NCBI GenBank assembly: GCA_963718875.1
Contig: OY970378.1
Location: forward strand, 947,691 to 1,011,690
DNA from: Candidatus Parcubacteria bacterium
Lineage (GTDB): Bacteria > Patescibacteriota > Saccharimonadia > UBA4664 > JBIOIQ01
Direction: 5' to 3'
DNA: 64,000 nt
Below the pieces are notes generated by a model, which was not told the origin of the DNA, searched no databases, and was given only the letters and a program-made list of their open reading frames with translations. This document shows positions 1,360 through 41,451 of the stretch, in pieces. The position numbers and the translations under genes were made by a program. Every line of letters starts with the position of its first letter. The first letter of the stretch is position 1.

Positions 1360-3882
1360 TCAATGACCCCCTCGTTCCCACTTGGATTGCGAGGGAGCCT
1401 TGGTTTGGGAGTTTTGAATTAACTTATGCGCCAAGTCCCAAGTACGGTACGTAAAACGCCCTACGCCAGCTAAATGTTCCTCACTCCAGGCCATTTCTTG
1501 ATCATATGGTCCCATAAACATCTCGTACAATCGAAGTATATCTGCTCCATGCGTCGTGATTACGCCGTCTGGATTAATAACATTGCCGCGAGATTTGCTC
1601 ATCTTTTGATTGTCCGGCCCTAAAATCATGCCATGGCTTCGTCTCTTGGCATAAGGCTCGAGAGAGGGCACGAGTTTTTGATCATATAAAAATTTGTGCC
1701 AAAAGCGTGAATACAACAAATGAAGTGTCGTATGCTCCATTCCGCCGTTATAGAGATCAACCATCAACCAGTCTTGTAATTTGGACGTTGAAGCAAAAAC
1801 TTGATCATTGTTGGGGTCAATGTAGCGCAAATAGTACCAGCTAGAGCCAGCCCAGTTGGGCATGGTGTCTGTTTCTCGCTTAGCCGGACCATCACATTGA
1901 GGGCAAACCGTATTAACCCAATCGGTAATTGCCGCCAAGGGGCTTTCACCTGTTTTGGTGGGTTCATAATGTTCAACTTCAGGCAAAGTAAGAGGTAGTT
2001 GATCTTCCGGCACCGGCACGACTCCACACTTGGGACAATGAACCACCGGGATAGGTTCGCCCCAGTAATGCTGGCGACTAAAAATCCAATCGCGCAGTTT
2101 GTACTTGACTGCGTGTTTTGCGGACCCCGCTTTAAACAAATCTTCCACTATGGCTTGCTTTGCTTCGGATCCTAATAAACCGTCGTATTGGCCGGAATTA
2201 ATCAGTTCTCCTTCATCCGTAAGTGCGGTTTCTTTCCATAATTGCTGCCAGACAAATTTTTGGTGGTCAGGTACAAGCCTATCTAAAACTGCTTTTTGTT
2301 CGACCCAAACTAGAGTATGTTGCTTGGATTCGGCGTTGGGAATATTGCCTTGCTGGCTTAGATTGTCAACCTCGGCCATGATCACCATAGTAATGGCCTT
2401 GCGGTTTTGCTGCTTATGCGAGGCGCAGTAACGCGCTCCGGTAACCCAACGTAACTTGCGAACAATATTTATGTCCTGTAAGGCCGCTTCTTCGCGGATC
2501 TCATTTAAGGCGGCAGTTTCAGGTGTTTGCCCGTCTTCAATCCCTCCCATGATGGCAGTAGTTATGCCCTCAAGAGTACCGTGCCAATCAAGCAGGGCAA
2601 ATTTACCAGTGGACTTATCTTTAAGATGGACGATTACCGTGTCCCGAACGACTTCTTCGTACCTGGGTTGAGGTGGATTTTTGGTATCGTCCTCAATAGG
2701 CATGATTACCTGCTTAATTGGTAGGTCAAATTTTTTGGCAAACTCAAAGTCACGCTCATCGTGGGCAGGGACAGCCATAATGGCGCCCGTACCGTAACCC
2801 ATTAAAACGTAGTCGGCGATCCAAACTGGAAGTTCCTCTTTGGTAAGAGGGTTGATCGCCATTGCTCCGGTCCAGACGCCAGTTTTGGGCCGCTCCTGGT
2901 CTTGCCGCATTAACTCTGTCTCGGACTGGACGGTTTTGATATAGCTTTCAGTAACTGATTTTTGACCAGAGGTTGTGATGTCTTTTACTAGTGGATGTTC
3001 AGGCGCCAAGACTAAAAATGTAGCTCCGGCCAATGTGTCGGCACGAGTGGTGAAAACTTCAATATAAGAATTGTCATCCTGAACTCGATTCAGGATCTCT
3101 TGACTTAGTTTAAGAGATTCCGAATCCTGAGCGCTCGCATGGGCATGGTTCGTGCTCGCTTCCGGTCCGGAATGACAGATTGGAAATTTAACCGTCGCCC
3201 CCTCACTTCGACCGATCCAGTTAATTTGTTGCGTGGCCACACGAGGCAAGTAATCGACCGTTTTTAAGTCTTCAATCAGTCTATCAGCATAGGCTGTGAT
3301 TTTGAGTAACCATTGTTTGAGTAATTTTTTTTCGACTTCTGTGCCACAGCGCTCATGACGACCATTAATAACCTCTTCGTTGGCCAACCCAGTCTTACAA
3401 AATGGGCACCAATTAATGGCAATCTCGGCTTGGTAAGCAAGCCCGGCTTTAAGAAGTTGTAAAAAAATCCACTGGGTCCACTTGTAGTACTTAGGGTCAG
3501 TGGTATTAACCTCGCGCGACCAGTCGAAGCTTAGGCCCAAGCTTTTCATTTGGCGACGGAACGTGTCGACATTACGTTCGGTAGCGAGATGAGGGGCAAT
3601 CTTGTTTTTGATTGCATAGTTTTCTGTGGGCAATCCAAAAGCATCCCAGCCCATAGGATAGAGCACATTGAAACCTTGCATACGCTTGTGTCTGGCCATA
3701 ATATCCAGGGCAGTAAAGCTGCGGACATGTCCTACATGCAGCCCATCTCCCGAGGGATAAGGAAATTCTGCCAACAGGTAATATTTGGGCTTAGGATCAA
3801 AATCGACCGCTTGATAAAGCTTAGTGTCCGTCCAAACTTTTTGCCATTTGGGCTCAATTTTGCCTGGTTCGTATGGTTTCAT
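1360..3882 (-). CDS. leuS: Leucyl-tRNA synthetase main body (HVGH ... KMSKS) with an embedded Nudix/MutT-like domain and a repeat-derived insertion
   Basis: HVGHVRS and KMSKSRGN class-I motifs; CP1/editing region (TTRADTLAGATF, AVPAHDERDFEFAKKF); Nudix box GGIEDGQTPETAALNEIREEAAL at about aa 446-468. Confidence 0.9.
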   Translation of the reverse strand: MKPYEPGKIEPKWQKVWTDTKLYQAVDFDPKPKYYLLAEFPYPSGDGLHVGHVRSFTALDIMARHKRMQGFNVLYPMGWDAFGLPTENYAIKNKIAPHLATERNVDTFRRQMKSLGLSFDWSREVNTTDPKYYKWTQWIFLQLLKAGLAYQAEIAINWCPFCKTGLANEEVINGRHERCGTEVEKKLLKQWLLKITAYADRLIEDLKTVDYLPRVATQQINWIGRSEGATVKFPICHSGPEASTNHAHASAQDSESLKLSQEILNRVQDDNSYIEVFTTRADTLAGATFLVLAPEHPLVKDITTSGQKSVTESYIKTVQSETELMRQDQERPKTGVWTGAMAINPLTKEELPVWIADYVLMGYGTGAIMAVPAHDERDFEFAKKFDLPIKQVIMPIEDDTKNPPQPRYEEVVRDTVIVHLKDKSTGKFALLDWHGTLEGITTAIMGGIEDGQTPETAALNEIREEAALQDINIVRKLRWVTGARYCASHKQQNRKAITMVIMAEVDNLSQQGNIPNAESKQHTLVWVEQKAVLDRLVPDHQKFVWQQLWKETALTDEGELINSGQYDGLLGSEAKQAIVEDLFKAGSAKHAVKYKLRDWIFSRQHYWGEPIPVVHCPKCGVVPVPEDQLPLTLPEVEHYEPTKTGESPLAAITDWVNTVCPQCDGPAKRETDTMPNWAGSSWYYLRYIDPNNDQVFASTSKLQDWLMVDLYNGGMEHTTLHLLYSRFWHKFLYDQKLVPSLEPYAKRRSHGMILGPDNQKMSKSRGNVINPDGVITTHGADILRLYEMFMGPYDQEMAWSEEHLAGVGRFTYRTWDLAHKLIQNSQTKAPSQSKWERGGH
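3066..3176. repeat. Family-B/D-like palindromic element inserted in-frame inside leuS
   Basis: ttgtcatcctgaa..ttcaggatc followed by agattccgaatcctgagcgctcgc...cgcttccggtccggaatgac; compare the intergenic B copies ggattccctatccggagcgc...ccgatagggaatgac. It encodes the low-complexity LeuRS segment CHSGPEASTNHAHASAQDSESLKLSQEILNRVQDDNS. Confidence 0.6.
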
Positions 3883-3930
3883 GAGGGTAATTGTACCCTA
3901 GGTAGGCAAAAAGTTCGAGGGCGAGTCCGC

Positions 3931-3969
3931 GATGTCTGACTTCTCTACCCGAGAAGGAAGTCAGACATC
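3931..3969. repeat. Isolated family-A hairpin (gatgtctgacttc / ggaagtcagacatc) between leuS and the high-GC islet
   Basis: 13-bp perfect inverted repeat containing the family-A core gaagtcagac, followed by ttttt. Confidence 0.6.
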
Positions 3970-4107
3970 GAGAACTTTTTTACCGGCAAACAGGAAGTAG
4001 GCAGGTTTGCTTATCCGTGACGGAACTCATGACGCTGAGACACGGTGTACTTTTGAGCTTATTTGTAGTATGGTAATGGTTCGAACCTTCGACAGATTGG
4101 ACGAATC

Positions 4108-4440
4108 ATGACACGTCAAGCAGTAAGGAACAACGACGGGCTTGACCAGATGCTTCACCACGTGGACTGGAGCGCAGCTCACGTCAGCAGGGAAATGCTG
4201 TGCAAGCTGATCGCCGTGGCCCTCGAGAGAGACTCCACTGACTCGGTTATGACCGCAAGCGTAATGCTGGCAATTGTCGCGCCGGTGGAAGGCTGTACAC
4301 CTGCAGATTGGCACGACAACCTCGGTTGGCTGCGCAAGACCCTGGCGATCGAGACGCCAGCACCAACCGGCCGGCACCGGGCGGGCGCGAGTGACGGGAC
4401 CAACCACGATGGCCGCAACGGTTCCTCTTGCGGGCACTAG
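4108..4440 (+). CDS. Hypothetical protein, first gene of a four-gene high-GC plus-strand islet
   Basis: About 60% GC versus about 45% background; the 4428 and 4630 starts have RBSs (aggag, gaggtga); minus-strand ORFs over the same span look like GC artefacts. Confidence 0.35.
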   Translation: MTRQAVRNNDGLDQMLHHVDWSAAHVSREMLCKLIAVALERDSTDSVMTASVMLAIVAPVEGCTPADWHDNLGWLRKTLAIETPAPTGRHRAGASDGTNHDGRNGSSCGH

Positions 4441-4613
4441 CACCAGGAGCTCTGATGGACTCCACTAGAGTTATCATCCCTGCTTGGTTTCCTGCGCCAG
4501 TTGGAGATGTTGACGAGCGGCCAGTTAGACCATCCCAGTGGGCCCCAGAGGTGATGGCTGAAGTGTTAGCCGAGGAGGCCGGAAGCCTCGTTACAACCAT
4601 TCCTCTGCCATGA
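4428..4613 (+). CDS. Hypothetical small protein (likely start MDSTRV at about 4455 after an aggag RBS)
   Basis: High-GC islet; RBS read from the sequence. Confidence 0.3.
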   Translation: MRALAPGALMDSTRVIIPAWFPAPVGDVDERPVRPSQWAPEVMAEVLAEEAGSLVTTIPLP

Positions 4614-4629
4614 CCTACAGAGGTGAGTA

Positions 4630-4878: not shown

Positions 4879-4920
4879 CGGCAGCTCCGCCAACAATCCA
4901 CACCACACTGTGGCTCCTTT

Positions 4921-4982: not shown

Positions 4983-5037
4983 AAAGTTGATCGTATAATA
5001 TTCCGCACCCGTACCGCCATAGAACAGGGAGCTCCAA

Positions 5038-5805: not shown

Positions 5806-5843
5806 CCTTCGACTTTGCTCAGGACCTCTGGCAGGATGACAAT
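5806..5843. repeat. Family-C half-site (cccttcgactttgctcagg) plus the caggatgacaat D-type terminal motif
   Basis: Matches the C copies at 761-778 and 8576-8596, and the D motif at 48993 and 58345. Confidence 0.5.
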
Positions 5844-7597: not shown

Positions 7598-7851
7598 TGG
7601 AGATCAACTTCCAGGAACTATTGGGCATGCTCGGCCGGTTCGTGCTTGACGGGTTCAAACGGAAGCGTCTGGCAGCGACGCTGTTCCTTTACTTACTCGG
7701 CGATGCCATCATGATGGGGATGATCGGCGTCATGATAGTAATCGGGCATCCGACGGGTGTAGCTGTGGCACTTGTTGCGACAGTGATGGCGATTTGGTTG
7801 ACACTCCCAACCTTCCGAGCTTGGGAGAGAAACCAGGCAGACATGCGTTAG
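7597..7851 (+). CDS. Hypothetical small membrane protein (two TM helices)
   Basis: Overlapping stop/start with the upstream gene (ATGA coupling); followed by a terminator. Confidence 0.4.
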   Translation: MEINFQELLGMLGRFVLDGFKRKRLAATLFLYLLGDAIMMGMIGVMIVIGHPTGVAVALVATVMAIWLTLPTFRAWERNQADMR

Positions 7852-7862
7852 AACAACAACCA

Positions 7863-7917
7863 CCGGTCCGGCGGCCACGCGCAAGCGCAGCTGCCGGACC
7901 GTTCGGCTTTTATAATC
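7863..7917 (+). terminator. Rho-independent terminator (ggtccggc..gccggacc plus ttcggcttttat)
   Basis: Inverted repeat plus T-run read from the sequence. Confidence 0.5.
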
Positions 7918-7937
7918 TGATTCTACGCTGGGCAAGG

Positions 7938-8033
7938 CCTTCGACCGACTCAGGCAATGATTGGTTTTTTGAAGTCCAACTTTAATCTTCATGGCTTTTG
8001 GCAATCGGGATTTGAAGTCAGACTTCTGATCAG
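7938..8033. repeat. Composite family-C half-site plus family-A element
   Basis: ccttcgaccgactcaggc followed by tggttttttgaagtccaactttaatc...gatttgaagtcagacttctgatcag. Confidence 0.8.
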
Positions 8034-8040
8034 TGTGAAA

Positions 8041-8560
8041 AGGCAAACGGCACCCCCGAGGAGGGGGTGCCGTGAGTGGCCCGCCAAGAAAGCGGCAGGC
8101 CAGTTTGTTTAGGGTGGTCAGCGGATCTGGTAATGGGGCGATTACCGTACTGCGATCCGCCTATCGTAGGGTTTCACACGCCGGATGAGGAACGCCCTCG
8201 TTAAGGCCCCAACTATCGCCACATATGCCCAGAAACCATGGGCCAGCTTTCCAAAAACGTCAAGGCGTTATACTTACTGCACCTGCTGACAATTTCGTCA
8301 GCTCCGCCCGGGCCCTGGTATGCGTATGCCTACGCATACCAGGGTAGATCCCGTTTGGGCCAATCGGCCGTCTGGTCGAGCTTCCGTTCGAGGGTGTGTG
8401 CCGGAGGGACCTGCCCAGGGGCACATTCATGACCCACCAAGAGCCGAGGCGCTTGATACCCTAGGATCCCATTGGACTTGACGGAAGAGCATCGCTTTTC
8501 GCCCGATCGGGGTATGAAAAACGTAGCAAAACTTGACAGAAGTGTCAAGAGAATTTTTGA
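8041..8560 (+). ncRNA. Candidate structured non-coding region (about 520 bp, elevated GC, several perfect hairpins, ends in a terminator); its identity could not be assigned
   Basis: Hairpins ggcaccccc-gagga-gggggtgcc (8049-8071) and ccctggtatgcgta-tgcc-tacgcataccaggg (about 8305-8340); cttgaca-gaag-tgtcaag plus tttttga (8531-8560); the only ORFs are 64-72 aa and unconvincing. Confidence 0.2.
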
Positions 8561-8575: not shown

Positions 8576-8705
8576 CAGCCTTCGACTATGCTCAGGCAAT
8601 AATTGATTTTTGAAGTCCGACTTTAATCTTAATAGCTTAGCAGTCTCGATTTGAAGTCGGACTTCTGATCTAGGTTTCATTTGAAGTCGGACTTCTGGTC
8701 TGGGT
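8576..8705. repeat. Composite family-C half-site plus an extended family-A element with an extra tandem A arm, abutting the murF stop codon
   Basis: cagccttcgactatgctcagg ... tgatttttgaagtccgactttaatc ... gatttgaagtcggacttctgatctaggtttcatttgaagtcggacttctggtctggg. Confidence 0.8.
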
Positions 8706-10274
8706 TCAGGCGAAGCTATCCGGCCAGTCATTCTGCAGCAACACCACGTCCCCCGCTTTGGTCAGTTTGGGCAACGCCAATAAAGCGCTTATTTCATCGG
8801 CGTAGGTCAACAACTGACCCTTAAAGTCGCCTTCTTTCAAACCAGTTTTGATATATTCCATGACAGACGTTTCAATCAATACCACCACCTCGATACCGGC
8901 CTCTGCGAGCAGGCGCCCAATTGTTTCATGTACTATCTTGGCACGATGGGCAGTTTCGGTGATTCCGGGGGTAACATAAAAGCGTTTGTGTCCCTTTAAG
9001 CTAGCTAAGAAGTTGATTGCTACCCTAGCCCCGTCAGGGTTGCCATTATAGGCATCGTCTATTGTAACCACACCGCTGCCGTCAGTGGATGGCTCCATGC
9101 GGTGTTCAAACGGTTTAGTAGCCGCCAGTCCTTTTTCGATATCGTCCTGCGATAATCCTAAATCTTTCGCTAGTATGGCTACGGCAGCCAATGGCCCAAC
9201 TTGGTGCACTCCTAATAATTGCGACTTAATATGAAGAGTCTCTTTGCCATGCTTCATTTCAAAGTTAGTTCCCTCAAGACCGGTTGAAACTTTGCCTACG
9301 CTCCAGTCGCCAACGCCTTTTGAGCTATAAACTGTGGCTTTGTATTGCTTAGCCCGCTCGGCAGCCAATGAGCTATCGCCGTTAACGTACAGGCTCACAT
9401 TTGTCATCTGACCTTTGACCCCAGATCGAGCCCGGGGCAGGCTATCTGACGCCACGGGCGAAAAACTAGGCTTTGATATCTCAGATTCGGTGCCATCTGG
9501 ATTCAAGGCCTGGTTGGTCTGATTCTGCAGCCAGTCACCCAGCTCATAAATGGTTGAGACTGTGGCGTCAAGTGAACGAAATTTGCTTAGGTGGGCTTCA
9601 TTTATACCGGTAATAACTCCAATATCAGGTTGAACCAAACGGCTGAGCTTAGTAATGTCACCTGGAAAATATTCACCCAGTTCAAAAATTAGGATCTCTT
9701 CGTCGCTTTTTAGGTTTTCGACAAAACGGCTAATCCCTGCCGGCGTGTTTAAATTTCCGGGGGTGGCAGCCACGGCTTTGGCAGTACTCAGTACCGTGAC
9801 TAGCATTTCTTTCATGGTGGTTTTGCCAAAGCTACCTGCAATGGCAATTTTGAAAGCCGGATGATCGGCTAACCGCTTGCTGGTGCGGGCGTCGCGGACC
9901 CTTTCCTGAGGTGTCAAAATGGCAATGCGAGCAATTATGGCCGCCAAGGCTAAACTATATGCCAATAAATAGGGCGCTAAAAGACAAATGATAATTACAG
10001 ACAGCGACCACCAAATTATTAACTTTTGGCTAATGGCAAAATACAGAAGCACCACAATGATGAGCCAAGCCAAGGCAATTTCGAGCCAAACAAACAGCAA
10101 AAAACCTTTGGCGGCGGCCGTCATATCCAGTTTTCGGACGCGGGCTACTTGCTTGAAGTTGCGAGTGCGATGAAACCAACTCAGGTAATCTTGGGGACGG
10201 TACTCACTTTGTTGCAACATGTAAACCAGTGACCTGACAAACTTTAGACTATAGCGGCTAAAAAAATTACGCAT
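8706..10274 (-). CDS. murF: Mur ligase (UDP-MurNAc-tripeptide--D-Ala-D-Ala ligase, MurF-like) with an unusual N-terminal transmembrane extension of about 110 aa
   Basis: AIAGSFGKTTMKEM ATP-binding motif and central/C-terminal Mur ligase domains; the N-terminus has two or three hydrophobic helices (LLFVWLEIALAWLIIVVLLYF..., IIWWSLSVIIICLLAPYLLAYSLALAAII). Confidence 0.8.
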   Translation of the reverse strand: MRNFFSRYSLKFVRSLVYMLQQSEYRPQDYLSWFHRTRNFKQVARVRKLDMTAAAKGFLLFVWLEIALAWLIIVVLLYFAISQKLIIWWSLSVIIICLLAPYLLAYSLALAAIIARIAILTPQERVRDARTSKRLADHPAFKIAIAGSFGKTTMKEMLVTVLSTAKAVAATPGNLNTPAGISRFVENLKSDEEILIFELGEYFPGDITKLSRLVQPDIGVITGINEAHLSKFRSLDATVSTIYELGDWLQNQTNQALNPDGTESEISKPSFSPVASDSLPRARSGVKGQMTNVSLYVNGDSSLAAERAKQYKATVYSSKGVGDWSVGKVSTGLEGTNFEMKHGKETLHIKSQLLGVHQVGPLAAVAILAKDLGLSQDDIEKGLAATKPFEHRMEPSTDGSGVVTIDDAYNGNPDGARVAINFLASLKGHKRFYVTPGITETAHRAKIVHETIGRLLAEAGIEVVVLIETSVMEYIKTGLKEGDFKGQLLTYADEISALLALPKLTKAGDVVLLQNDWPDSFA

Positions 10275-12090: not shown

Positions 12091-12230
12091 GTGTCCCCTC
12101 TTTATTATTTGGCTAACAGTTTACTTTTAAATCATGCAATATAGTTTGGATAATCATCCAATTATATTGAACTATTTCTTATAGACTTTGTGGTCCCCCA
12201 GACGAGTTAAGAGAAAATTTTATGGTGGAG

Positions 12231-12250
12231 CATAACGGGATCCCGCCACG
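12231..12250 (-). repeat. Partial duplicate of the tRNA-Ala 3' end (tggtggagcataacgggatc), 57 bp from the intact tRNA
   Basis: 20/20 identity with the 3' end of the tRNA at 12307-12382. Confidence 0.7.
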
Positions 12251-12268
12251 GCGGATAAACTTCCCGTT

Positions 12269-12292
12269 GACCTGTCGCCGCGGCGACAGGTC
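12269..12292. repeat. Palindromic direct repeat (gacctgtcgccgcggcgacaggtc), left flank of the tRNA-Ala/GIY-YIG unit
   Basis: Perfect palindrome; a near-identical copy gacctgtcgcctaggcgacc lies at 12660-12679. Confidence 0.6.
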
Positions 12293-12306
12293 TGTTTAAA
12301 AAAACT

Positions 12307-12382
<76 letters not shown>

Positions 12383-12409
12383 CTCAAGTTTTTTCAAAAA
12401 TGTGAGCTA

Positions 12410-12649
12410 CTACAGCCCCATGCTTTTCAATTCATCACTGCCTCTTCCGGTTTTGAGGTACCTTTCTCTGGATACTACTTCTGATCTGGTTTGGAAGTTC
12501 TCAGAGTGAAGTAGAGCGAAGGGCTTATTAAGCTTATCGTAACCACTTTTGCCGGCATTGTGCTCCGATAACCGTTTACTCAGATTATCTGTAGATCCGG
12601 TGTATCGACGCTGATTTTTTTGACTTTTCAGAATATACACATAATACAT
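12410..12649 (-). CDS. GIY-YIG nuclease superfamily small protein (79 aa)
   Basis: MYYVYILKS...RRYTGSTDNLSKRLSEHNAGK is a GIY-YIG core (GIY...YTG...R...EH). Confidence 0.7.
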   Translation of the reverse strand: MYYVYILKSQKNQRRYTGSTDNLSKRLSEHNAGKSGYDKLNKPFALLHSENFQTRSEVVSRERYLKTGRGSDELKSMGL

Positions 12650-12659
12650 AATATTTACC

Positions 12660-12719
12660 GACCTGTCGCCTAGGCGACCGCTCTACCTCCGTCAGCTGAC
12701 GGATGAGCTACTGCCCCGT
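12660..12719. repeat. Right-flank palindromic direct repeat, then the ccgtcagctgacgg palindrome and a fragment resembling a tRNA-Ala 5' end (gagctactgcccc)
   Basis: gacctgtcgcctaggcgacc ... ccgtcagctgacggatgagctactgcccc; the same ccgtcagctgacgg palindrome sits next to the second tRNA-Ala at 14601-14616. Confidence 0.5.
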
Positions 12720-12792
12720 AGTTGTTTTTTAACCAAACTTGGAACTCGGGTTATTCTACCAACTTATAGTTCCGGCAGCAACAGCGGACTTT

Positions 12793-14225: not shown

Positions 14226-14508
14226 CTGGTGAAGCTTAAGGAGATTGTGGCTTCGCCACCTCTCGGAGCCTGCCCCGGACTTGATCCGGGGGTGCTCGAC
14301 ATGAACAAACGATGTTTGTTCATGCTCTCCAGCTCCTCGTTCACCTGAACTCCAAGGGAGTTCTCACTCCCGCATCTCCTGGTGGAGCTTAAGGAGATTG
14401 TGGCTTCGCCACCTCCCTGTGGTGCTCGACATGAACAAACGATGTTTGTTCATGCTCTCCAGCTCCTCGTTCACCTGAACTCCAAGGGAGTTCTCACTCC
14501 CGCATCTC
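14226..14508. repeat. Tandem direct repeat (about 153 bp then 130 bp). Each unit starts with a tRNA-Ala 3'-end-like sequence (ctggtgaagct / ctggtggagct) and contains the hairpin catgaacaaac-gat-gtttgttcatg. It runs directly into tRNA-Ala(CGC)
   Basis: Units 14226-14378 and 14379-14508 are near-identical apart from one roughly 23-bp indel; the ORF-track ORFs 14364..14570 and 14382..14615 are artefacts that span the tRNA. Confidence 0.8.
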
Positions 14509-14509
14509 C

Positions 14510-14585
14510 TGGTGGAGCTGGGGAGATTCGAACTCCCTACCTCTGCAATGCGAATGCAGCGCTCTACCAAGTGAGCTACAGCCCC
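14510..14585 (-). tRNA. tRNA-Ala (anticodon CGC), CCA encoded
   Basis: Reverse complement is GGGGCTGTAGCTCACTTGGTAGAGCGCTGCATTCGCATTGCAGAGGTAGGGAGTTCGAATCTCCCCAGCTCCACCA; G3:U70 pair. Confidence 0.9.
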
Positions 14586-14833: not shown

Positions 14834-16392
14834 TCCATTTCATTAGTACCGATTCTTATAATATCACCTGGCTCGACTCCATGCTTAATAAGCTCTTTGC
14901 CAACGCCTGTTTTGCGCAAAATGTCGCGCATACGCTCCACAGCATCTTGGTTGTCCCAGTCAGTACGACGGCCATGGCCTTCAATGTTGCCGCCCATCAC
15001 CCGCCAAGAGCCATCCGGTTCTTGTTCTAATTTCCATAAATTTGGAAAATCCATTTGGTCAATAACGGCTTTAGGCTCGGCCTCGGCGGCGGCTTTTCGC
15101 GCCTCTCGTGCCACCATCACTAACTGCGCCGTTCGACGTAACAAAACATCGAGACCCCGGTGAGCTACTGCTGATATGGCGAAAATACTAGTCTTGTCAT
15201 CCTCGACAGAAAGGTCACTCTCATCCACATGATTATTGGCCTTGTCGACCGCTTCTGATCGGGGATCCAGTTGACTAGGTTCCCTATCCGGAGCGAGGTT
15301 GTCTAATTTATGGTTAGTCTCGTCTTCCGATAGGGAATGACGTTTGAGGATGGTTTGTTCGTCTGGATTTGAAATCTGACTTCTGGAGATTACCGATGCT
15401 AGTTTTTCCATTTGACTTTTTAATTCCTCAGCCGTAACTGTTTCGATCTTGGTTAGCACTACCAGTTGCGGACGCTGTGTAAGGTCAACACTGTACGAAG
15501 TTAGCTCGTTTATTATAGTCAGGTAGTCGCGTTCAATGTCGTTTGAGTCAACGCTAATAAGGTGTAGTATTACCGCCGTGCGCTCGATGTGCCGTAAAAA
15601 TTCATCACCTAAGCCTTTGCCTTCGCTGGCTCCTTCAATTAGGCCCGGAATATCGGCTACTAAAAAAGTGTTTTGCTCAAAGTCGACGACACCCAGGTTT
15701 GGCACCAAGGTGGTGAACGGGTAGTCGGCTATTTCTGGCTTGGCGTTACTAATGACGGACAGGAGTGTGGACTTTCCCGCGTTTGGCAATCCTACCAGTC
15801 CAACGTCTGCCACTAGTTTAAGCTCCAAGGCAACGCGAAGTTTTTCGCCCGGCTCGCCTTTTTCCGCTAAATGCGGGGTTTGGCGGACGGAAGATATAAA
15901 GTGTGCATTACCAAACCCGCCGCGGCCACCTTTGGCCACAACCACTTGTTGGCCATCGTCGGTAAGATCGGCCAATACCTTAGCATCGTGAGTCGTGATC
16001 GGAGAGTTGTGAGTTGTCCTTCTATCTGGATTAGAAGTCAGACTTACATCTTTGATGCTTGTAGGACCTGGATTAGAAGTCTGACTTCTAGCCTGGGGCA
16101 TTTCATAAATAACTGTACCTACCGGCACTCTAATAATCATGTCCTGACCACTTTTACCTGCCTTGCGGTTGCCACCACCTGGAGCGCCGTCTTCAGCCTC
16201 TACTTTGCGGTTAGTGCGGTATTTGCTTAAAGTATTTTGGTTGTGGCTTGATTCAAATATAATGCTGCCACCACGGCCGCCATCGCCGCCATCGGCTCCG
16301 CCTTTGGCGCGGTATTTTTCGTGACGAAAGCCCATCTTGCCATCGCCGCCTTTGCCCGCCCGTAATTCGATTTCAGCTTTATCAGTAAACAT
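14824..16392 (-). CDS. obg: GTPase Obg/CgtA, expanded to 522 aa by three in-frame repeat-element insertions
   Basis: Obg fold N-terminus (GGDGGRGGSIIFE), G1 motif GLPNAGKSTLL, C-terminal OCT/TGS-like domain; the extra segments map exactly onto the repeat copies at 15251-15387 and 16025-16096. Confidence 0.9.
   Translation of the reverse strand: MFTDKAEIELRAGKGGDGKMGFRHEKYRAKGGADGGDGGRGGSIIFESSHNQNTLSKYRTNRKVEAEDGAPGGGNRKAGKSGQDMIIRVPVGTVIYEMPQARSQTSNPGPTSIKDVSLTSNPDRRTTHNSPITTHDAKVLADLTDDGQQVVVAKGGRGGFGNAHFISSVRQTPHLAEKGEPGEKLRVALELKLVADVGLVGLPNAGKSTLLSVISNAKPEIADYPFTTLVPNLGVVDFEQNTFLVADIPGLIEGASEGKGLGDEFLRHIERTAVILHLISVDSNDIERDYLTIINELTSYSVDLTQRPQLVVLTKIETVTAEELKSQMEKLASVISRSQISNPDEQTILKRHSLSEDETNHKLDNLAPDREPSQLDPRSEAVDKANNHVDESDLSVEDDKTSIFAISAVAHRGLDVLLRRTAQLVMVAREARKAAAEAEPKAVIDQMDFPNLWKLEQEPDGSWRVMGGNIEGHGRRTDWDNQDAVERMRDILRKTGVGKELIKHGVEPGDIIRIGTNEMEWL
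15251..15342. repeat. Family-B element inside obg (gcttctgatcggggatccag ... ggttccctatccggagcg ... ccgatagggaatgacg)
   Basis: Matches the intergenic B copies at 26516, 32388, 34994, 36237 and 51378. Confidence 0.75.
15362..15387. repeat. Family-A half element inside obg (tctggatttgaaatctgacttctgga)
   Basis: A-family core. Confidence 0.6.
16025..16096. repeat. Full family-A element inside obg (tctggattagaagtcagacttacatc...ctggattagaagtctgacttctagcctgg)
   Basis: Encodes the extra Obg segment QARSQTSNPGPTSIKDVSLTSNPDRRTT between GTVIYE and the KGGRGGFGN region. Confidence 0.8.
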
Positions 16393-18014: not shown

Positions 18015-18198
18015 GAGGCGTACTAGCAGGTACGTCGAGCGAGGAGCGCAGGGTTTGACGCCGGGATGTGCCAATTAGGGACTTAAAGCCAACTACCTGA
18101 GTGCAGTTCGGATGCAAGATCGAGTACCGTAACCGAGCCGTAGTTGGACCTACGGTGAGGGCGGAACGCAGATATTGCGCCGAAATGTGCCAGGGAGG
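18015..18198. repeat. Two adjacent copies of the family-E structured element (about 90-100 nt each, GC-rich, containing gcgcaggNNttgac...atgYgccaatt)
   Basis: E1 18015-18082 and E2 18101-18198 share ordered blocks with E3 at 36433-36554: gaggcgtact..aggtacg.cga...gcgcagg..ttgac...atg.gccaatt. Confidence 0.6.
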
Positions 18199-26515: not shown

Positions 26516-26590
26516 CGCTTCTGATCGGAGATCCAGCCGATTTCCTGCCGTGAGCGCTCCTCTCTCGCTTCCGATAGGGAACAATGTGGG
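26516..26590. repeat. Family-B element upstream of ftsA
   Basis: ccgcttctgatcggagatccag...gcgctcctctctcgcttccgatagggaac. Confidence 0.75.
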
Positions 26591-32294: not shown

Positions 32295-32387
32295 CCGCGT
32301 ACTTATGCGGATGCCGTCTAATCAAGGGACGGTGGGCCTCAAGGCCTGCCGTCCCTGACGCTTTTTACAAGTTACCTACTTTATTTC

Positions 32388-32431
32388 TGGATCCCCTATC
32401 CGGAGCGCTATGCTTCCGATAGGGGACGACA
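32388..32431. repeat. Family-B element
   Basis: ctggatcccctatccggagcgctatgcttccgataggggacgac. Confidence 0.8.
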
Positions 32432-32444
32432 AAAATGTGTATTT

Positions 32445-32926: not shown

Positions 32927-34906
32927 TTACTCGAGTACAGCTTTGATTCTCCGGATACCGGCCGATGAGGCTTCTTCTTTGGTAATTTTGAATTTACCCA
33001 AAGTTCCGGTGTGCTCCACATGCGGCCCCCCGCAGATTTCCTGACTGTACCACTCCCCGACTGGATCGCCAGCAGTGTAAACTTTGACTGTGTCGCCGTA
33101 TTTATGGCCGAATGCCCCCAAGACCCCTCGTTTTAGTGCACCTTGTGTGTCTTCTTCCCTCCAACTCATTGGCCAGTCTTTGGCGATGTTTTCGTTGACG
33201 ATGCGCTCGATTTCTTTGATTTGCTCTGGAGTAACTTTTTCGGGATGGCTAAAATCAAAGCGCAAGCGCTCGGGAGTAATATTGCTACCGCGCTGAGTAA
33301 CGTGATCGCCCAGGACGAGACGCAGGGCTTTGTACATTAGGTGGGTGGCGGTGTGGTATTTGGTGCTCATCTCGCTGTGATCAGCCAAGCCGCCTTTAAA
33401 CTGGCCTTGAGTGGCGGTGCGAGAGCGTTCCTTTTGCTCGGCCATCAATTTATCGAAGTCCGCTTTCCAATTTGGATCAATTTCAACCTTTAAACGATCC
33501 GCTTCTTCAAGGCTCAACTCAAAAGGAAACCCGTAAGTGTCGAATAATTCGAATATAACTTTGCCTGTTATTTTATTGCCTGAGCCTTGCCTGCCGGCAG
33601 GCAGGCTTGTCGAAGGCTCTAAATCGGCGGCGCCCTTCGACTCCGTTATCACTTTGCTCAGGGAATATTTTGGACCCCCGGAGACACGGCGTTCGAATTC
33701 TCTAATCCCCTTCTCCAGCGTTGTGCGAAACTGAGTCTCCTCGCGCATCAGCACATCCATGACTTCGTTCTCGCGTTCTTTGACTTCCGGGTAGGCTTCG
33801 CGATAAATACCGGTGATGACGGGGACGATTTGGTCCATAAAGTCTTCGCGCAGATCTAAGACAAGAGCTTGACGGATGGCGCGGCGAATAAAGCGGCGCA
33901 TCACATATCCCTGAGCAGTGTTGGATGGTACGACTCCGTCGACGGCCAGGAAAGTAGCGGCGCGAAGGTGGTCGGCAATAATACGCATGGCGTTGGTCTG
34001 GTCGGCGTAATCAAAACCGGACAACTCCTGAAGTTTTTCGATGATGGGCCAAAGGACACTAATTTTAAACATATCGGGAGAATTGATGGCTGCGGCGGCG
34101 ATGCGCTCTAACCCGCCACCAAAATCTACGTTTTGACGAGGCAATTCATAGATTCCGCCGTCTTCGCTTTTAAGATATTGCATAAAGACCGAGTTACCGA
34201 TTTCCATGAAACGCCCGCAATCACAGTTAGGATGACAATGCTTGCCCCATTTAGAATCGTGCTCTACTTCATCGAATAGATAGAAAACTTCCGCGCAAGG
34301 ACCGCACGGATCGCCTACTGGCGTGGTTTCAGGACCTTTTTCACCGCGATTCCACCAGTTCTTCTTGGCCTCGTATAAAAAAATGCGCTCGCCATCTTTA
34401 ACGCCGCGCTCATAGCCGTCACCTTCTGATCCGATTTCAGCCACTTGCGGCTCTATGCCCTTCACTTTGTATAGTTTTTTCCAAATTTCAACTGACTCGG
34501 TATCTTGGGGGATATTGTATTTTTTATCACCGATGAAGGCTGTTACATAAAGCTTCTCCGGATTAAGCCCGATCGTATCAGTCAGGAACTCCCAAAACCA
34601 TGGTAACTCCTCGTCTTTAAAATATTCACCAAGACTCCAGTTACCTAGCATTTCGAACAAAGTAGTGTGTCGATTGTCCCCTACTTCGTCAATATCTTCA
34701 GCCCGAAAACAAGGTTGAGAATCAACTAACCTTGTACCCTGAGGATGTTTCTCACCCAGCAGATATGGCACAAGCGGCTGCATGCCTGAACCGGTAAAAA
34801 GAGTGGTGGCGTCTTCGGCCGGCACCAAGTTAGACCGCGGGATAATGGTGTGTCCGCGGTCGGTGAAAAACTGTAAAAATTTGGAACGAATTTCCTCGGT
34901 AGTCAT
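32927..34906 (-). CDS. alaS: Alanyl-tRNA synthetase, short form (659 aa; catalytic, tRNA-recognition and editing domains, no C-Ala/DHHA1 tail), with an in-frame family-C insertion
   Basis: Class-II AlaRS N-terminus (FTGSGMQP..., RAEDIDEVGDNRHTTLFEMLGNWS), editing HxxxH...CGGPH; ends directly after the editing domain. Confidence 0.9.
   Translation of the reverse strand: MTTEEIRSKFLQFFTDRGHTIIPRSNLVPAEDATTLFTGSGMQPLVPYLLGEKHPQGTRLVDSQPCFRAEDIDEVGDNRHTTLFEMLGNWSLGEYFKDEELPWFWEFLTDTIGLNPEKLYVTAFIGDKKYNIPQDTESVEIWKKLYKVKGIEPQVAEIGSEGDGYERGVKDGERIFLYEAKKNWWNRGEKGPETTPVGDPCGPCAEVFYLFDEVEHDSKWGKHCHPNCDCGRFMEIGNSVFMQYLKSEDGGIYELPRQNVDFGGGLERIAAAAINSPDMFKISVLWPIIEKLQELSGFDYADQTNAMRIIADHLRAATFLAVDGVVPSNTAQGYVMRRFIRRAIRQALVLDLREDFMDQIVPVITGIYREAYPEVKERENEVMDVLMREETQFRTTLEKGIREFERRVSGGPKYSLSKVITESKGAADLEPSTSLPAGRQGSGNKITGKVIFELFDTYGFPFELSLEEADRLKVEIDPNWKADFDKLMAEQKERSRTATQGQFKGGLADHSEMSTKYHTATHLMYKALRLVLGDHVTQRGSNITPERLRFDFSHPEKVTPEQIKEIERIVNENIAKDWPMSWREEDTQGALKRGVLGAFGHKYGDTVKVYTAGDPVGEWYSQEICGGPHVEHTGTLGKFKITKEEASSAGIRRIKAVLE
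33580..33650. repeat. Family-C palindromic element inserted in-frame in alaS
   Basis: cctgagccttgcctgccggcaggcaggcttgtcgaaggctc...gcccttcgactccg; encodes the extra AlaRS segment ...SKGAADLEPSTSLPAGRQGSG... Confidence 0.65.
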
Positions 34907-34993
34907 GACGACTATTGTACCCTAGAAAGTGGTTTTTTTGAACCTGTGCGCTCAATACCCAACCTCAAACTGTCATCCTCGATCTGAGCGTCG

Positions 34994-35060
34994 GCTGGAT
35001 TCCCTATCCGGAGCACCAAACTAGGCAATGGTGGAGTTTGGCTACCGATAGGGAATGACG
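34994..35060. repeat. Family-B element (alaS-mnmA intergenic)
   Basis: ctggattccctatccggagcaccaaactaggcaatggtggagtttggctaccgatagggaatgacgg. Confidence 0.8.
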
Positions 35061-35133
35061 GATGTTTGTCTTGTGGCTGACGATTGAATAATCTCATGAG
35101 ACTGCTTTATCGCAAACGCTCTTCGCAGCGACG

Positions 35134-36186: not shown

Positions 36187-36236
36187 TACGGAATATTACT
36201 GGGTGAGGGGTTAAATGACAAGCTATTCGTGTTTTG

Positions 36237-36345
36237 CCTGGATCCCCTATCCGGAGCGCTCCTGTCTCGCTTCCGATAGGGGATGACAAGGGGGAGGGGT
36301 TGAACCTAGCTTCCAATAAGGGGCGACAGTGGGGAAGGGTTGGCG
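36237..36345. repeat. Family-B element plus a partial second copy
   Basis: ctggatcccctatccggagcgctcctgtctcgcttccgataggggatgacaaggggg... then cttccaataaggggcgacagtggggaaggg. Confidence 0.8.
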
Positions 36346-36432: not shown

Positions 36433-36554
36433 GGGGCTTGCGCAATTGAATGCAGTTCGAGGAAAGCCGAGCATCGCAAATGAGGCGTACTTAGAGGTAC
36501 GACGAATGCGAAGCGCAGGCCTTGACAATGAAATGCGCCAATTGTGCAAGCCCC
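36433..36554. repeat. Family-E structured element (third copy), closed by the long-range stem ggggcttgcgcaattg / caattgtgcaagcccc
   Basis: Ordered sequence blocks shared with 18015-18198. Confidence 0.6.
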
Positions 36555-38098: not shown

Positions 38099-38115
38099 GT
38101 AGGTATTGTAGCCAC

Positions 38116-39321: not shown

Positions 39322-39393
39322 GTTAGTGTAATATGCTTTAAGTTCTGTAATGAGTCAAGGACGTACTCGAGACTTGGGGCTAGGAGGTCCTTT

Positions 39394-39696
39394 ATGGGTA
39401 AGGTGCGTATGCTCGCAATTGTCGGGGGTGCGGCAGTAGTTGCCGGAGTTGTGAACCACGAGCTTGGTGACCCGCGTCCACGGCAAAAGGCACACCAGTG
39501 TCTTAGTAAGGCCGATGAGGCGCTTCGGAACGGAAACTCTGATGCAGCCAGGGGAATTGCTGCTGAGCTGAGAGAGTACGTTCGAAGGGTGCAGGGACCA
39601 GACAAGGTCGTTCCCTTCCTTGTCTGGTTGGACATTCGAGCACTGATCATCATCCACCCAGACCGTAACCGACACCGCCGCTGGCTCATACGCTGA
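39394..39696 (+). CDS. Hypothetical small protein, GC about 57%
   Basis: Strong RBS ggggctaggaggtcctttATG; followed by caccaagt...acttggtg plus gtgtttgtgtttttttac (terminator 39728-39770). Confidence 0.45.
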   Translation: MGKVRMLAIVGGAAVVAGVVNHELGDPRPRQKAHQCLSKADEALRNGNSDAARGIAAELREYVRRVQGPDKVVPFLVWLDIRALIIIHPDRNRHRRWLIR

Positions 39697-39869
39697 CCAA
39701 GCCGTGTTTTATCTACATCACCAAGTGCGGCTATTGTGCTGTACTTGGTGGTGTTTGTGTTTTTTTACAAACTTACCTGTTTACCAGCAAGCTTTTTCGA
39801 AATCTTTTAATAAAAATGTGTCGATCTAAGTCTTCTCTGCATCCAAATCCCATCTGTCCCAGGTGCTCT

Positions 39870-39924
39870 TATATCTTTTTGCAATATTGAAATTTGTAAT
39901 ACAATCCATTACAATACATTACAA
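39870..39924 (+). promoter_or_regulatory. AT-rich direct repeats (attacaat / attacaaa x3) immediately upstream of the RHH-Nudix gene; candidate operator for its RHH domain
   Basis: ttgaaatttgtaatacaatccattacaatacattacaaatgacaag. Confidence 0.3.
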
Positions 39925-40596
39925 ATGACAAGACATTCAAAAATTATAAACTTCTCCTTATCGCCCCAACAATATGACGAATTGGATAGCTTAGCCGTTG
40001 CTAGCGGACGTAATCGTAGCGAACTGATGCGGAGTATTATTAGTGCTTCGCTGCAAGGTATGAAACAAAGGGATGTGGGATCGAATACAATTTTTAGAGA
40101 AAATAATGCGGACATAGCTAGTATGTTAAAAGATTTTTGGCTAGCCCGTACTAGCTCGCCTTTAGAAATAAAGGTAGCGGGTTTAATTATTGCCGTTAAC
40201 GATGAGGGTCGGGTTTTAATTGGCAAGCGCCATCAGACCGATCCTAACGTGCCAAACCTGACCTGGTCTTTTCCTGGAAGTCGCTTACAAACTTTGGACT
40301 TTCAGAAAGAGTTAACCAAGAGCTTCCATGAACGCACCGGTTTACATGTAAACATTAATAAAGTAGTAGCTGCTCGTGTAATTCCCGAAAGCGGCCAAAA
40401 CGGCGCACAAGTTGTTGCCTTGTATGCACATGGTCCCGTCCAAGGGAACCAGCACTTTACCGCTCAAGCCCCTTATTCGGAACTCAAGTGGGTCAAGCCT
40501 TTGGATGTATTCAAGTATTTTACAAGCTCAACTACCGACGAAGTCACCGCTTTTTTAAATAGTTTGGACAGCGCTTCAGACTTTGATCCCAAATAA
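39925..40596 (+). CDS. Fusion of a ribbon-helix-helix (CopG/Arc-like) DNA-binding domain with a degenerate Nudix-fold domain
   Basis: N-terminal INFSLSPQQYDELDSLAVASGRNRSELMRSII; the C-terminal Nudix-like fold (GSRLQTLDFQKELTKSFHERTGL) lacks the catalytic REx2EE. Confidence 0.55.
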   Translation: MTRHSKIINFSLSPQQYDELDSLAVASGRNRSELMRSIISASLQGMKQRDVGSNTIFRENNADIASMLKDFWLARTSSPLEIKVAGLIIAVNDEGRVLIGKRHQTDPNVPNLTWSFPGSRLQTLDFQKELTKSFHERTGLHVNINKVVAARVIPESGQNGAQVVALYAHGPVQGNQHFTAQAPYSELKWVKPLDVFKYFTSSTTDEVTAFLNSLDSASDFDPK

Positions 40597-41451
40597 CTCT
40601 GCCGCATTGCGGCTCGTGGCATTCCCGAGAGTATTGAATGATTCCCCTCTTAACTGTGCTAAAAACTCGGCAGTAAATTTAGCATTTGCCGGTTCATTCA
40701 CTTTTCCTCGTCTTGGCACTGGGGTTAAAAACGGGCAGTCTGTTTCTAGTACTAGGTTCTGTAACGGAACAGCTTTTGCAGCTGCCAGCTGTACCTCGTC
40801 CTTGGTAAAAGTCATGATGCCATTAAGCGCTATGAGGAAACCCCGCTCAACAGCTTTTTTCATATTAGCCGTTGTGCTGCTAAAACAGTGTACTATGCCA
40901 CGCAGTCCTGGATACTCGTCCACAATTCTAAAAAAATCATCAAAAGCATCGTCGCCTGTGCCTGCGGCTATCGATGGAGCTGAGGGTCGTACATGCCACA
41001 CCATCGGTTTATTGTACTCCAGGGCAAGTTCAATTTGAATTCGAAAAGCCTGCTCCTGCCATTGGCGGGTGGCAGAAGTCAAACTTTTGATCTTAGTCTG
41101 TGGGTAATCTGGATTTGAAGTCTGACTTTGATCTGGTCGGCCCTTCTCTAGTCGATAATAGTCTAAACCGCACTCACCAATTGCAACCACCTTAGGATAT
41201 GATAATAGCCTCCTAAAGGTTACTGGCCAGGTAGCATTATTTGCAATGCTTGCGTCTTCGGGGTGTAAGCCTACTGTGGCATAAACTTCTTGGTATTTGT
41301 TGGTTACCTCCACAGCTTCAACACTATCAGCCTCGTTCGTGCCCACGTTCACGATTACATTAATGCCAGCAACATGAGCATTCTCTACTACTTCATCAAT
41401 CCGGTTTTTAAGCCCTTCATGGTGCAGATGGGCGTGAGTGTCGATCAACAA
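40576..41451 (-). CDS. tatD: TatD-family metal-dependent DNase, with an in-frame family-A insertion
   Basis: MLIDTHAHL, IGECGLDYY and hydrolase motifs; extra segment KGRPDQSQTSNPDYPQTKIKSLTSA. Confidence 0.85.
   Translation of the reverse strand: MLIDTHAHLHHEGLKNRIDEVVENAHVAGINVIVNVGTNEADSVEAVEVTNKYQEVYATVGLHPEDASIANNATWPVTFRRLLSYPKVVAIGECGLDYYRLEKGRPDQSQTSNPDYPQTKIKSLTSATRQWQEQAFRIQIELALEYNKPMVWHVRPSAPSIAAGTGDDAFDDFFRIVDEYPGLRGIVHCFSSTTANMKKAVERGFLIALNGIMTFTKDEVQLAAAKAVPLQNLVLETDCPFLTPVPRRGKVNEPANAKFTAEFLAQLRGESFNTLGNATSRNAAELFGIKV
41073..41137. repeat. Family-A element inside tatD
   Basis: gaagtcaaacttttgatcttagtctgtgggtaatctggatttgaagtctgactttgatctgg. Confidence 0.8.

Follow-up and report, generated by a model that had tools for sequence, protein, structure and literature searches.

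Dispersed hairpin-forming repeats, probably of the REP/RPE type, inside leuS, alaS, tatD and obg of a Saccharimonadia genome

Described palindromic repeats and four families in the window

Palindromic repeats that lie between genes and also in frame within them were described in Rickettsia as Rickettsia palindromic elements, or RPEs (Ogata et al. 2000, 2002, in the summaries given by PMC10969869 and PMC3733652). Here, we describe a comparable arrangement in a 64,000-nucleotide (nt) stretch, referred to below as the window, from the genome of a Candidatus Parcubacteria bacterium assigned to the Saccharimonadia (contig OY970378.1, positions 947,691 to 1,011,690). In this window, copies of four families of dispersed hairpin-forming repeats (A, B, C and D) are found between genes as well as in frame within leuS, alaS, tatD and obg.

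Three other groups of repeats provide the closest comparisons. In the relevant sections of a 2013 survey, repetitive extragenic palindromes (REPs) tagged with CGTC or TGTC have, besides the tag, an 8-9 bp stem starting with AT, 4-5 nt in the loop and CCA as the tail. The same sections describe CGTC REPs as mostly inverted dimers just downstream of open reading frames (ORFs), and report that several species have copies in frame within genes (Di Nocera, De Gregorio and Rocco 2013, PMC3733652). There, CGTC-1 is equated with the Neisseria repeat dRS3, CGTC-1 and CGTC-4 are equated with RPE-6 and RPE-4, which are themselves CGTC-tagged REPs, and the class is placed in five phyla, mostly in alpha-Proteobacteria; these sections make no mention of bacteria of the candidate phyla radiation (CPR). 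In Neisseria, NTS repeats (CGTCATTCCCGCGMAVGCGGGAATCYRG; flanks CGTCATTCCC...GGGAATCYRG) and Ssn-related motifs (SRMs) flank small single-domain GIY-YIG nucleases (Ssn, cd10448) that cut NTS and SRMs as single-stranded DNA (ssDNA), and NTS repeats modulate transformation via SsnA (Chenal et al. 2025, PMC11893778). That study discusses neither in-frame genic copies nor Patescibacteria. [quoted passage not shown]

The window has a G+C content (GC) of 49% and is dense with housekeeping genes, predominantly on the minus strand, including leuS, ddl, murF, obg, an ftsA-like gene, guaA, alaS, mnmA, tatD, ksgA, uvrD, pgk and pyk. The best matches of its proteins are to uncultured Patescibacteria, several labelled Candidatus Saccharimonadia; the leucyl- and alanyl-tRNA synthetases (LeuRS, AlaRS), TatD, Obg and MurF were assigned by Pfam. 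The four repeat families were reconstructed from the window sequence. Family A is an imperfect palindrome of ~70 nt (..TTTGAAGTCnGACTTTAATC..(~20 nt)..GATTTGAAGTCnGACTTCTGATC..), whereas family C is a short hairpin with the core CCTTCGAC-nnn-CTCAGG. Family B is a long hairpin, reading (C/T)GTCATTCCCTATCGGAAGC..loop..GCTCCGGATAGGGAATCCAG on the minus strand, with the ends (C/T)GTCATTCCC...GGGAATCCAG, and family D is the hairpin TGTC-ATCCTGAA-nnnnn-TTCAGGAT-CCA.

In order to avoid circularity, profile hidden Markov models (HMMs) for families A and B were built from intergenic copies only, four for each family, and then run on the window with nhmmer. Families C and D were counted as patterns against shuffles (dinucleotide shuffles for C). 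This comparison with shuffled controls had been set beforehand as one by which the repeat similarity could be refuted; it yielded seven family-C cores against 0.01 expected, two of them in alaS as an inverted pair, and two family-D matches against 0.00 expected, in leuS and downstream of ksgA. The family-B HMM recovered two additional intergenic copies, and GTCATYCC..GGRAYC was matched seven times against 0.13 expected. All copies fold as hairpins with z-scores between -2 and -6. Rfam identified two tRNA-Ala genes in the window and no family matching any of the repeats.

Intergenic copies lie mostly just 3' of stop codons: B and D copies are found 9-71 nt downstream of a NUDIX gene, ksgA, uvrD and mnmA, and family-A elements at 241-313, 789-860 and 8604-8706 start 0-10 nt past the stop codons of three genes. 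The latter position is typical of REPs acting on mRNA 3' ends.

Judged by their sequences, family D is a canonical tagged REP and family B an elongated relative; together with the core of family C, they belong to the widespread tagged-REP class already described, intragenic in-frame copies included, and are not specific to this genome. Family D has the TGTC tag, the exact stem and loop of CGTC REPs (an 8-bp stem beginning AT, ATCCTGAA and TTCAGGAT, around 5 nt) and a CCA or CTC tail. The family-B stem also starts with AT but is much longer and interrupted, with a larger interior and a loop of 9 to ~35 nt. A (C/T)GTC tag was present in 8/10 B and D copies, and the tail was CCA(G) at 34998, 36241, 51381 and 49048 and CTC in leuS; the copy between mnmA and alaS, for example, reads CGTC-ATTCCCTATCGG..CCGGATAGGGAAT-CCAG on the minus strand. 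Also shared with CGTC REPs are inverted dimers with 20-100 bp spacers, copies close downstream of ORFs and intragenic dimers encoding 20-40 residues. The dimers are exemplified by leuS and, among the metagenome matches listed (see below), by an inverted tagged partner hairpin within 130 nt in 42/132. In contrast, the window C copies lack the tag and family A is untagged.

Family B further resembles NTS and dRS3, which like the SRMs are part of the tagged-REP class, in that it begins and ends as the NTS flanks do, and its copies carry the SRM flanks (5' GTCAT, a semi-palindrome, 3' ATCYRG). A strict scan of the window for GTCA with a 7-bp stem found only three hairpins against 1.05 expected, because family B has long interiors.

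With RPEs, the window shares several palindromic families in a small genome, intergenic and in frame in unrelated housekeeping genes, each family encoding a recognisable peptide and the inserts occupying fold-tolerant sites; this likeness rests on layout and gene placement, as distinct from sequence comparison with RPE consensuses. The differences are the host, which belongs to the Saccharimonadia (Patescibacteria/CPR) and is not an alphaproteobacterium, the unit length (25-110 nt vs ~150 bp for RPE-1) and the patchy sharing of inserts among fairly distant relatives. Like MITEs, the window repeats are short, non-autonomous and bounded by inverted ends, and lie inside ORFs without breaking them. 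Unlike MITEs, they show no target-site duplication, parent insertion sequence (IS) or transposase that we could find, and their ends are REP-type hairpins rather than IS-derived terminal inverted repeats. In the literature searched, we found nothing on inserts of this sort in Saccharibacteria or CPR, no description of families A and C, and no link between in-frame copies and Ssn-associated hairpins in Patescibacteria-like contigs.

In-frame copies in leuS, alaS, tatD and obg

An earlier note, made from the letters of the window, had proposed that leuS, alaS and tatD, in addition to obg, carry in-frame copies of dispersed families. This was borne out by the HMM E-values, the C and D pattern counts and blastn, and the coordinates and peptides first given for the leuS, alaS and tatD segments held, apart from the extent of the alaS copy. 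When the genic copies were aligned to orthologs and solved structures, every insert in leuS, alaS and tatD was in frame and extra relative to the structures and to most homologs.

In tatD, positions 41075-41137 matched the intergenic-only family-A HMM (E = 2.1e-11), and the copy was 79% identical over 71 nt to intergenic positions 249-318 by pairwise blastn (E = 6e-8). It encodes DQSQTSNPDYPQTKIKSLTSA, between strand beta4 (IGECGLDYY) and helix alpha4, and accounts for ~24 residues beyond those of 1J6O; 20/22 aligned homologs are without this insert. The closest TatD (P0002, 61% identity) has the peptide SQTSDLDGPQDSIKSLTS at this site, and another homolog (P0003) a shorter, unrelated insert. 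A second, smaller extra segment, PSAPSIAAGTGD, follows the WHVR strand of TatD (40950-40995, residues ~156-167). Its DNA (CCATCGATAGCCGCAGGC) is loosely C-unit-like and may be a decayed C copy; P0003 has PSTGSGDSGGGAK there, the family-C peptide.

The obg copies were likewise confirmed. Insert 1 encodes RSQTSNPGPTSIKDVSLTSNP, with a family-A HMM match at 16031-16097 (E = 8.8e-11). Insert 2 is composed of an A half-unit at 15359-15386 (RSQISNPD, E = 5.6e-4), a family-B hairpin at 15250-15345 (RHSLSEDE..APDREP; HMM match 15250-15343, E = 1.2e-10) and a terminal motif AGGATGACAA (15194-15203, VEDDKT), and adds ~70 residues that 1UDX does not have. A-, B- and D-type peptides were absent from all of the best 150 representatives among Obg homologs.

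The leuS insert is an inverted dimer of ~110 nt, made up of one B and one D hairpin with their tags outward. On the coding strand, the B unit (3116-3179) reads TGTC-ATTCCGGA..TTCGGAAT-CTC and is followed, after a spacer, by the D unit (3073-3097), GAG-ATCCTGAA-TCGAG-TTCAGGAT-GACA; the inverted ends of the composite (TGTCATYCC...GGATGACA) close a multibranch fold. The B unit matched the intergenic-only HMM with E = 3.2e-5, and the D hairpin has a single intergenic twin, at 49048-49072. The encoded CHSGPEAS...ILNRVQDDN lies at the linker into the editing domain, just ahead of its VFTTRADT motif, where LeuRS has 37 residues vs 5 in Thermus thermophilus LeuRS. The insert is absent from all 19 of the closest homologs (60-69% identity). 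At this point, whole alpha/beta-hydrolase or ASCH domains are present in some homologs that are more distant, and the site is therefore permissive. In a locus with 58% LeuRS identity (L002), the site reads GTCATTCC..hairpin, a spacer, then GATCCTGAATCAAGTTCAGGATGACAAG. Its D hairpin is identical at 26/27 nt, and its first hairpin is in a reading frame differing from that of the window, which favours independent events or later indels.

Two further features of this gene were noted. A NUDIX hydrolase domain is inserted after the editing domain (~2250-2560, residues ~442-544) and is common to most Saccharimonadia homologs (PF00293 in nearly all of the best 120 matches). In addition, a frameshift within a low-complexity linker (1300-1450) divides leuS, with the C-terminal anticodon-binding part in ORF 858-1358. 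In tblastn, one frame covers residues 1-801 of the protein P0122 and the following frame residues 775-975. The public LeuRS protein is likewise the 840-amino-acid (aa) truncation; the sequence may contain an error, LeuRS may truly be split, or the gene may be a pseudogene.

The earlier note had placed a family-C copy in alaS at 33580-33650. Its family and frame were correct, but the insert actually spans ~33575-33668 and consists of two inverted units, 33579-33616(-) and 33634-33662(+), which form one long hairpin (RNA fold -38.5 kcal/mol, z = -2.6). The former unit contains an additional internal palindrome, CCTGCCTGCCGGCAGGCAAGG, and the insert encodes YSLSKVITESKGAADLEPSTSLPAGRQGSGN. Most Saccharimonadia homologs have a loop of 4-6 residues at this site, which is hypervariable in the rest of the class. 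A syntenic contig with 76% AlaRS identity (L001) has both inverted C units in alaS at the DNA level and no other C unit in its 22 kb. Relative to this contig, third-codon identity was 0.85 in the insert (22/26) vs 0.46 elsewhere in alaS (binomial p = 5.6e-5), whereas amino-acid identity was 0.62 in the insert vs 0.78 outside. The nucleotide motif itself has therefore been preserved or refreshed. Selection acting on the hairpin could account for this, as could gene conversion by other copies or the repeated arrival of a conserved element.

A possible degenerate copy had also been suggested in murF. The segment does comprise ~40 extra residues, and TTGAATCCAGAT and CAGATGACAA resemble A and D ends by eye; the similarity to the repeat families, however, was not significant (best match 25 nt at 88% to 14267-14291, E = 0.12), and murF was not retained as a fifth host gene.

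Families A and B are each read in a recurrent frame. Family A uses the same frame in tatD and obg (RSQTSNP..IK..SLTS), one in which the intergenic A copies have stop codons, and family B the same frame in leuS and obg ((C/R)HS(G/L)(P/S)E); three of the six frames of family D are open. The encoded peptides are hydrophilic, with ILNxVQDD for D and PST..GSG for C. AlphaFold2 models of TatD and AlaRS were confident overall, with predicted local distance difference test (pLDDT) scores below 50 exactly over the inserts (residues 102-117 in TatD; 31-37 over residues 411-443 in AlaRS) and confident secondary structure in the flanks. The models thus predict that the TatD and AlaRS inserts are disordered loops, and the inserts are predicted to lie in fold-compatible surface loops.

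Occurrence in other organisms and small GIY-YIG genes

Metagenome contigs were scanned for exact matches to TCCTGAA-N(3-7)-TTCAGGATGACAA. The matches listed place the D hairpin on more than 120 contigs with GC from 0.23 to 0.71, and the following counts also refer to these listed matches. GA, which the pattern did not specify, precedes the match in 125/132 and completes the 8-bp stem, and the loop is 5 nt long in 131/132, although 3-7 were allowed. Partner stems vary (TCCTGAA, TTCCGAA, TGCTGAA, TCCCGAA, TTCCGGA), each with a complementary 3' half. Long ORFs contain nine of the 132 hairpins deep in their interior, and seven of these ORFs were identified by Pfam as PheT (two contigs), a class-I aminoacyl-tRNA synthetase (aaRS), PriA, UppP, a glycosyltransferase and a methyltransferase; these hairpins encode CHPE(L/F)(V/I)SGS and/or ILKQVQDD. 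Since D hairpins recur in frame in unrelated housekeeping genes, the window is one instance of a broad pattern. The listed D-hairpin loci, 0.74 Mb in all, contain 12 small GIY-YIG ORFs, of which nine are flanked by tagged hairpins within 0-140 nt, mostly on both sides, as in the SRM-ssn-SRM architecture; the 64-kb window, in contrast, has no hairpin-flanked ssn gene. One metagenome locus (L105) has a canonical NTS-like TGTCATTCCCGCGAAGGCGGGAATCCA.

The family-C core was also found in seven unrelated metagenome loci, once with a TGTC tag. A family-A 18-mer had 15 matches, approximately the estimated chance number, in a genome contig collection that does not include the source genome, and family A appears, by sequence, to be lineage-specific. 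In a Saccharibacteria metagenome-assembled genome, contig CAZBVM010000002.1, four GAAGTCsGA(A/C)TT(C/T) units (L015, 3370-3450) lie in frame in an ORF for a 731-aa Wzy_C protein (O-antigen ligase); three of the four are GAAGTCsGACTTC/AAGTCGGACTTC, and they encode ..KSDFSRSPTSRSPEVGLQMPNSDFRR... Family-A-like units are therefore also intragenic in another Saccharibacteria genome. A separate metagenome contig (Ga0206858_1037, L040) has seven D hairpins in 14.8 kb, on both strands, six of which are followed by a conserved ATCA(A/G)GG.. flank; this suggests that, in the organism concerned, the D hairpin forms one end of a repeated element of larger size.

The sole nuclease candidate in the window is a small GIY-YIG gene (Table 1). 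It was rejected for now as the cognate Ssn, and no cognate nuclease was identified in the window, because this gene aligns with a UPF0213-like subgroup that is not flanked by hairpins. At 12230-12725, the gene and an intact tRNA-Ala(GGC) (12307-12382) lie between the apparent 5' half (~12723-12664) and 3' half (~12295-12230) of a second tRNA-Ala-like sequence. In each half a small palindrome is inserted (GACCTGTCGCCnnGGCGACAGGTC; CCGCCGTGGCGG in the T-loop), and the arrangement suggests an element inserted into a tRNA gene, bringing a replacement copy.

Other repeats were also noted in the window. An intergenic pair at 18015-18076 and 36482-36543 (62 nt), which was not assigned to a family, is 74% identical (E = 1e-5). 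A 52-nt direct repeat with an internal hairpin (GGACG..CGTCC), unrelated to the four families, is found on both sides of ORF 62998-63663 (62958-63009 and 63678-63729, 85% identity). A tandem duplication at 14226-14530, with 104-114 nt that are 96-98% identical and a further unit of 37 nt that is 97% identical, contains the perfect palindrome CATGAACAAACGATGTTTGTTCATG and abuts and overlaps the 3' end of tRNA-Ala(CGC) at 14510-14585.

Table 1. Repeat copies, in-frame inserts and their host genes in the window
Feature	Position	Strand	Evidence or remark
Intergenic family-A copy, directly after stop codon of ORF 307-630	241..313	+	HMM
Intergenic C+A composite, directly after stop codon of leuS C-terminal ORF	760..860	+	HMM, C pattern
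leuS (LeuRS), 840-aa ORF	1360..3882	-	Pfam tRNA-synt_1, editing domain, NUDIX; alignment with 2V0C (T. thermophilus LeuRS)
In-frame composite insert in leuS	3069..3179	-	HMM for B, pattern for D, alignments
Intergenic composite: GATCCTGAAC.., hairpin, C unit (5806-5823), then ..GGCAGGATGACAA	5756..5844	+	C pattern
C+A composite, overlapping N-terminal end of unannotated ORF 7693-8046	7936..8037	+	HMM, C pattern, blastn
Intergenic C+A composite with extra A half-unit, directly after murF stop codon	8578..8706	+	HMM, C pattern
murF segment, ~40 extra residues vs solved MurF 3ZL8	9350..9542	-	Possible degenerate repeat composite, unproven
Small single-domain GIY-YIG gene, 79 aa	12410..12649	-	Pfam GIY-YIG 1.8e-17; UPF0213 EF2693 5e-7
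obg, 522 aa vs homolog median 430 aa	14824..16392	-	Pfam GTP1_OBG, MMR_HSR1, DUF1967
Insert 2 in obg, composite and in frame (inside residues 332-459)	15194..15386	-	nhmmer, 1UDX alignment
In-frame family-A copy in obg (insert 1, residues ~99-136)	16028..16099	-	nhmmer, 1UDX alignment, hairpin z = -4.1
Intergenic family-B copy, degenerate tag, upstream of ftsA-like gene	26516..26590	+	HMM E = 3e-18, model member
Intergenic family-B copy, 9 nt downstream of NUDIX gene	32380..32436	+	HMM E = 3.6e-11, outside model
alaS (short AlaRS, 659 aa)	32927..34906	-	Pfam tRNA-synt_2c, tRNA_SAD
In-frame insert in alaS, ~34 extra residues	~33575..33668	-	C pattern, fold, alignments
Intergenic family-B copy between mnmA and alaS	34974..35063	+	HMM, fold
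Intergenic family-B copy upstream of mnmA	36236..36292	+	HMM
tatD (TatD-family hydrolase, 291 aa vs ~252 aa in homologs)	40576..41451	-	Pfam TatD_DNase E = 5.8e-66
In-frame family-A copy in tatD	41073..41137	-	nhmmer, hairpin z = -2.7
Intergenic family-B copy, orientation opposite to others, upstream of transglutaminase-like gene	45004..45068	-	HMM E = 1.7e-8
Intergenic family-C unit	48867..48883	-	C pattern
Intergenic family-D hairpin, TGTC-ATCCTGAA-TTTAT-TTCAGGAT-CCA, 53 nt downstream of ksgA	49048..49072	-	Pattern, fold
Intergenic family-B copy, 54 nt downstream of uvrD/pcrA	51376..51446	+	HMM, fold

Origin and maintenance of the genic copies

We consider it very probable that the genic segments are small hairpin-forming dispersed repeats of the REP/RPE type that became fixed inside coding sequences. 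The phenomenon is real and consists of RPE-like intragenic REPs; the kind is already known from RPEs, intragenic CGTC REPs and in-frame MITEs, and the lineage is new. The repeats, mostly found just past stop codons, would also land in permissive loops of housekeeping proteins. Genic copies would survive only where a surface loop or a linker between domains is permissive, the net added length is a multiple of three and the frame is stop-free, and would be translated as hydrophilic, disordered loops, the decorated proteins presumably being functional. By analogy with NTS and SRMs, ssDNA hairpins may take part in the spread, together with an Ssn-type GIY-YIG nuclease or some other enzyme, and copies may also undergo gene conversion among themselves. 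The earlier note had raised the alternative that the inserts are conserved ancestral features; this was true in part, in that the alaS insert is shared with L001, the tatD insert with P0002 and the leuS D hairpin with L002, but most orthologs lack them. Because of this sharing, we regard the inserts as old or recurrent and patchily distributed, and not as recent strain-specific hops. Inteins, introns and CRISPR were dismissed on size, the absence of relevant signatures and irregular spacing.

Several points weigh against fixation of dispersed repeats as the explanation. We infer, rather than observe, that the inserts are translated within their host proteins. No target-site duplication was recognised by eye at the leuS, tatD or alaS inserts, where orthologs are too diverged for base-level comparison with empty sites. 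No mobilising enzyme was identified in the 64-kb window, no transposase was present among the part of its ORFs that was scanned, and its GIY-YIG gene has no flanking tagged hairpins. Despite the like architecture, the repeats do not belong to the SRMs in the strict sense, because the published pattern (HGTCWYN(0-2)YYVSBRHN(0-5)WNVSBRGN(0-2)RNCYNB) finds nothing in the window (shuffle mean 0.22). Moreover, insert presence in relatives was compared at 58-79% protein identity, and for this reason no insertion event is dated; the examination was also confined to these 64 kb of a 1.19-Mb genome.

An alternative that we regard as unlikely, yet as the strongest of those considered, is that the intragenic hairpins are kept by selection at the nucleic-acid level. 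They might be sites for an Ssn-type ssDNA nuclease, whose cleavage or recognition would limit recombination or transformation around essential genes, or they might be structured DNA or RNA elements affecting replication, transcription or translation. The third-codon conservation in the alaS insert, far above that of the remaining gene while amino-acid identity is lower, is consistent with such selection, as are the near-identity of the leuS D hairpin in L002 despite 58% LeuRS identity, the conservation of a 25-nt D hairpin over listed contigs of widely different GC, and the SsnA-dependent effect of NTS repeats in Neisseria. However, gene conversion or independent recent insertions at permissive sites would give an equal signal, the alaS statistic rests on only 26 codons, the shifted frame of the first L002 hairpin favours independent events or later indels, and no ssn orthologue was found in the window. 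Somewhat less likely again is the fuller proposal that tagged hairpins in essential genes of Patescibacteria are kept as functional sites, with the peptide loops as a by-product and the patchy occurrence of identical hairpins at matching protein sites of distant lineages arising through site-directed insertion or selection and not by chance. If true, hairpins acting as targets of Ssn-type nucleases would control the recombination of incoming or replicating DNA at core genes, or the hairpins would be structured elements with a role in replication or translation. Synonymous-site conservation in the alaS insert provides a testable handle on whether intragenic hairpins are tolerated or used.

The two remaining explanations are effectively excluded, by the significance of the HMM and pattern matches and by independent assemblies, respectively. 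Ancestral, lineage-specific loops whose resemblance to intergenic DNA is coincidental low complexity would fit the fact that relatives at 61-76% identity share the inserts of tatD and alaS, and also the class-wide variability of the sites, where unrelated inserts are numerous. Such coincidence is nevertheless highly improbable given E-values down to 2e-11 from HMMs without genic copies, the excess of the C pattern over shuffles, the lack of the inserts in most close homologs, and the recurrence of the peptides in proteins that are not related to each other (TatD and Obg for A; LeuRS and Obg for B; PheT, PriA, UppP and others for D). Even less credible are repeat-induced misjoins in the assembly or binning of a metagenome-assembled genome, for although this is a single public contig of an uncultured lineage with a frameshift in leuS, frames are open across every insert, flanks are collinear with orthologs on both sides, and independent assemblies agree (L001 alaS, L002 leuS, P0002 TatD and nine metagenome ORFs).

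Taken together, fixation of dispersed REP/RPE-type repeats within genes would extend protein-coding palindromes, for which Rickettsia and a small number of other bacteria have so far provided the best documentation, to the CPR, whose members are likewise small-genomed and host-dependent. It would also tie intragenic palindromes to the tagged-REP/NTS class, for which the description of Ssn as a cognate family of ssDNA nucleases dates only from 2025. For the annotation and phylogenomics of CPR bacteria, peptides such as CHPELVSGS, ILKQVQDD, RSQTSNP and PSTGSG in aaRSs, Obg, PriA and further proteins would be repeat-derived, and not functional motifs of the lineage.

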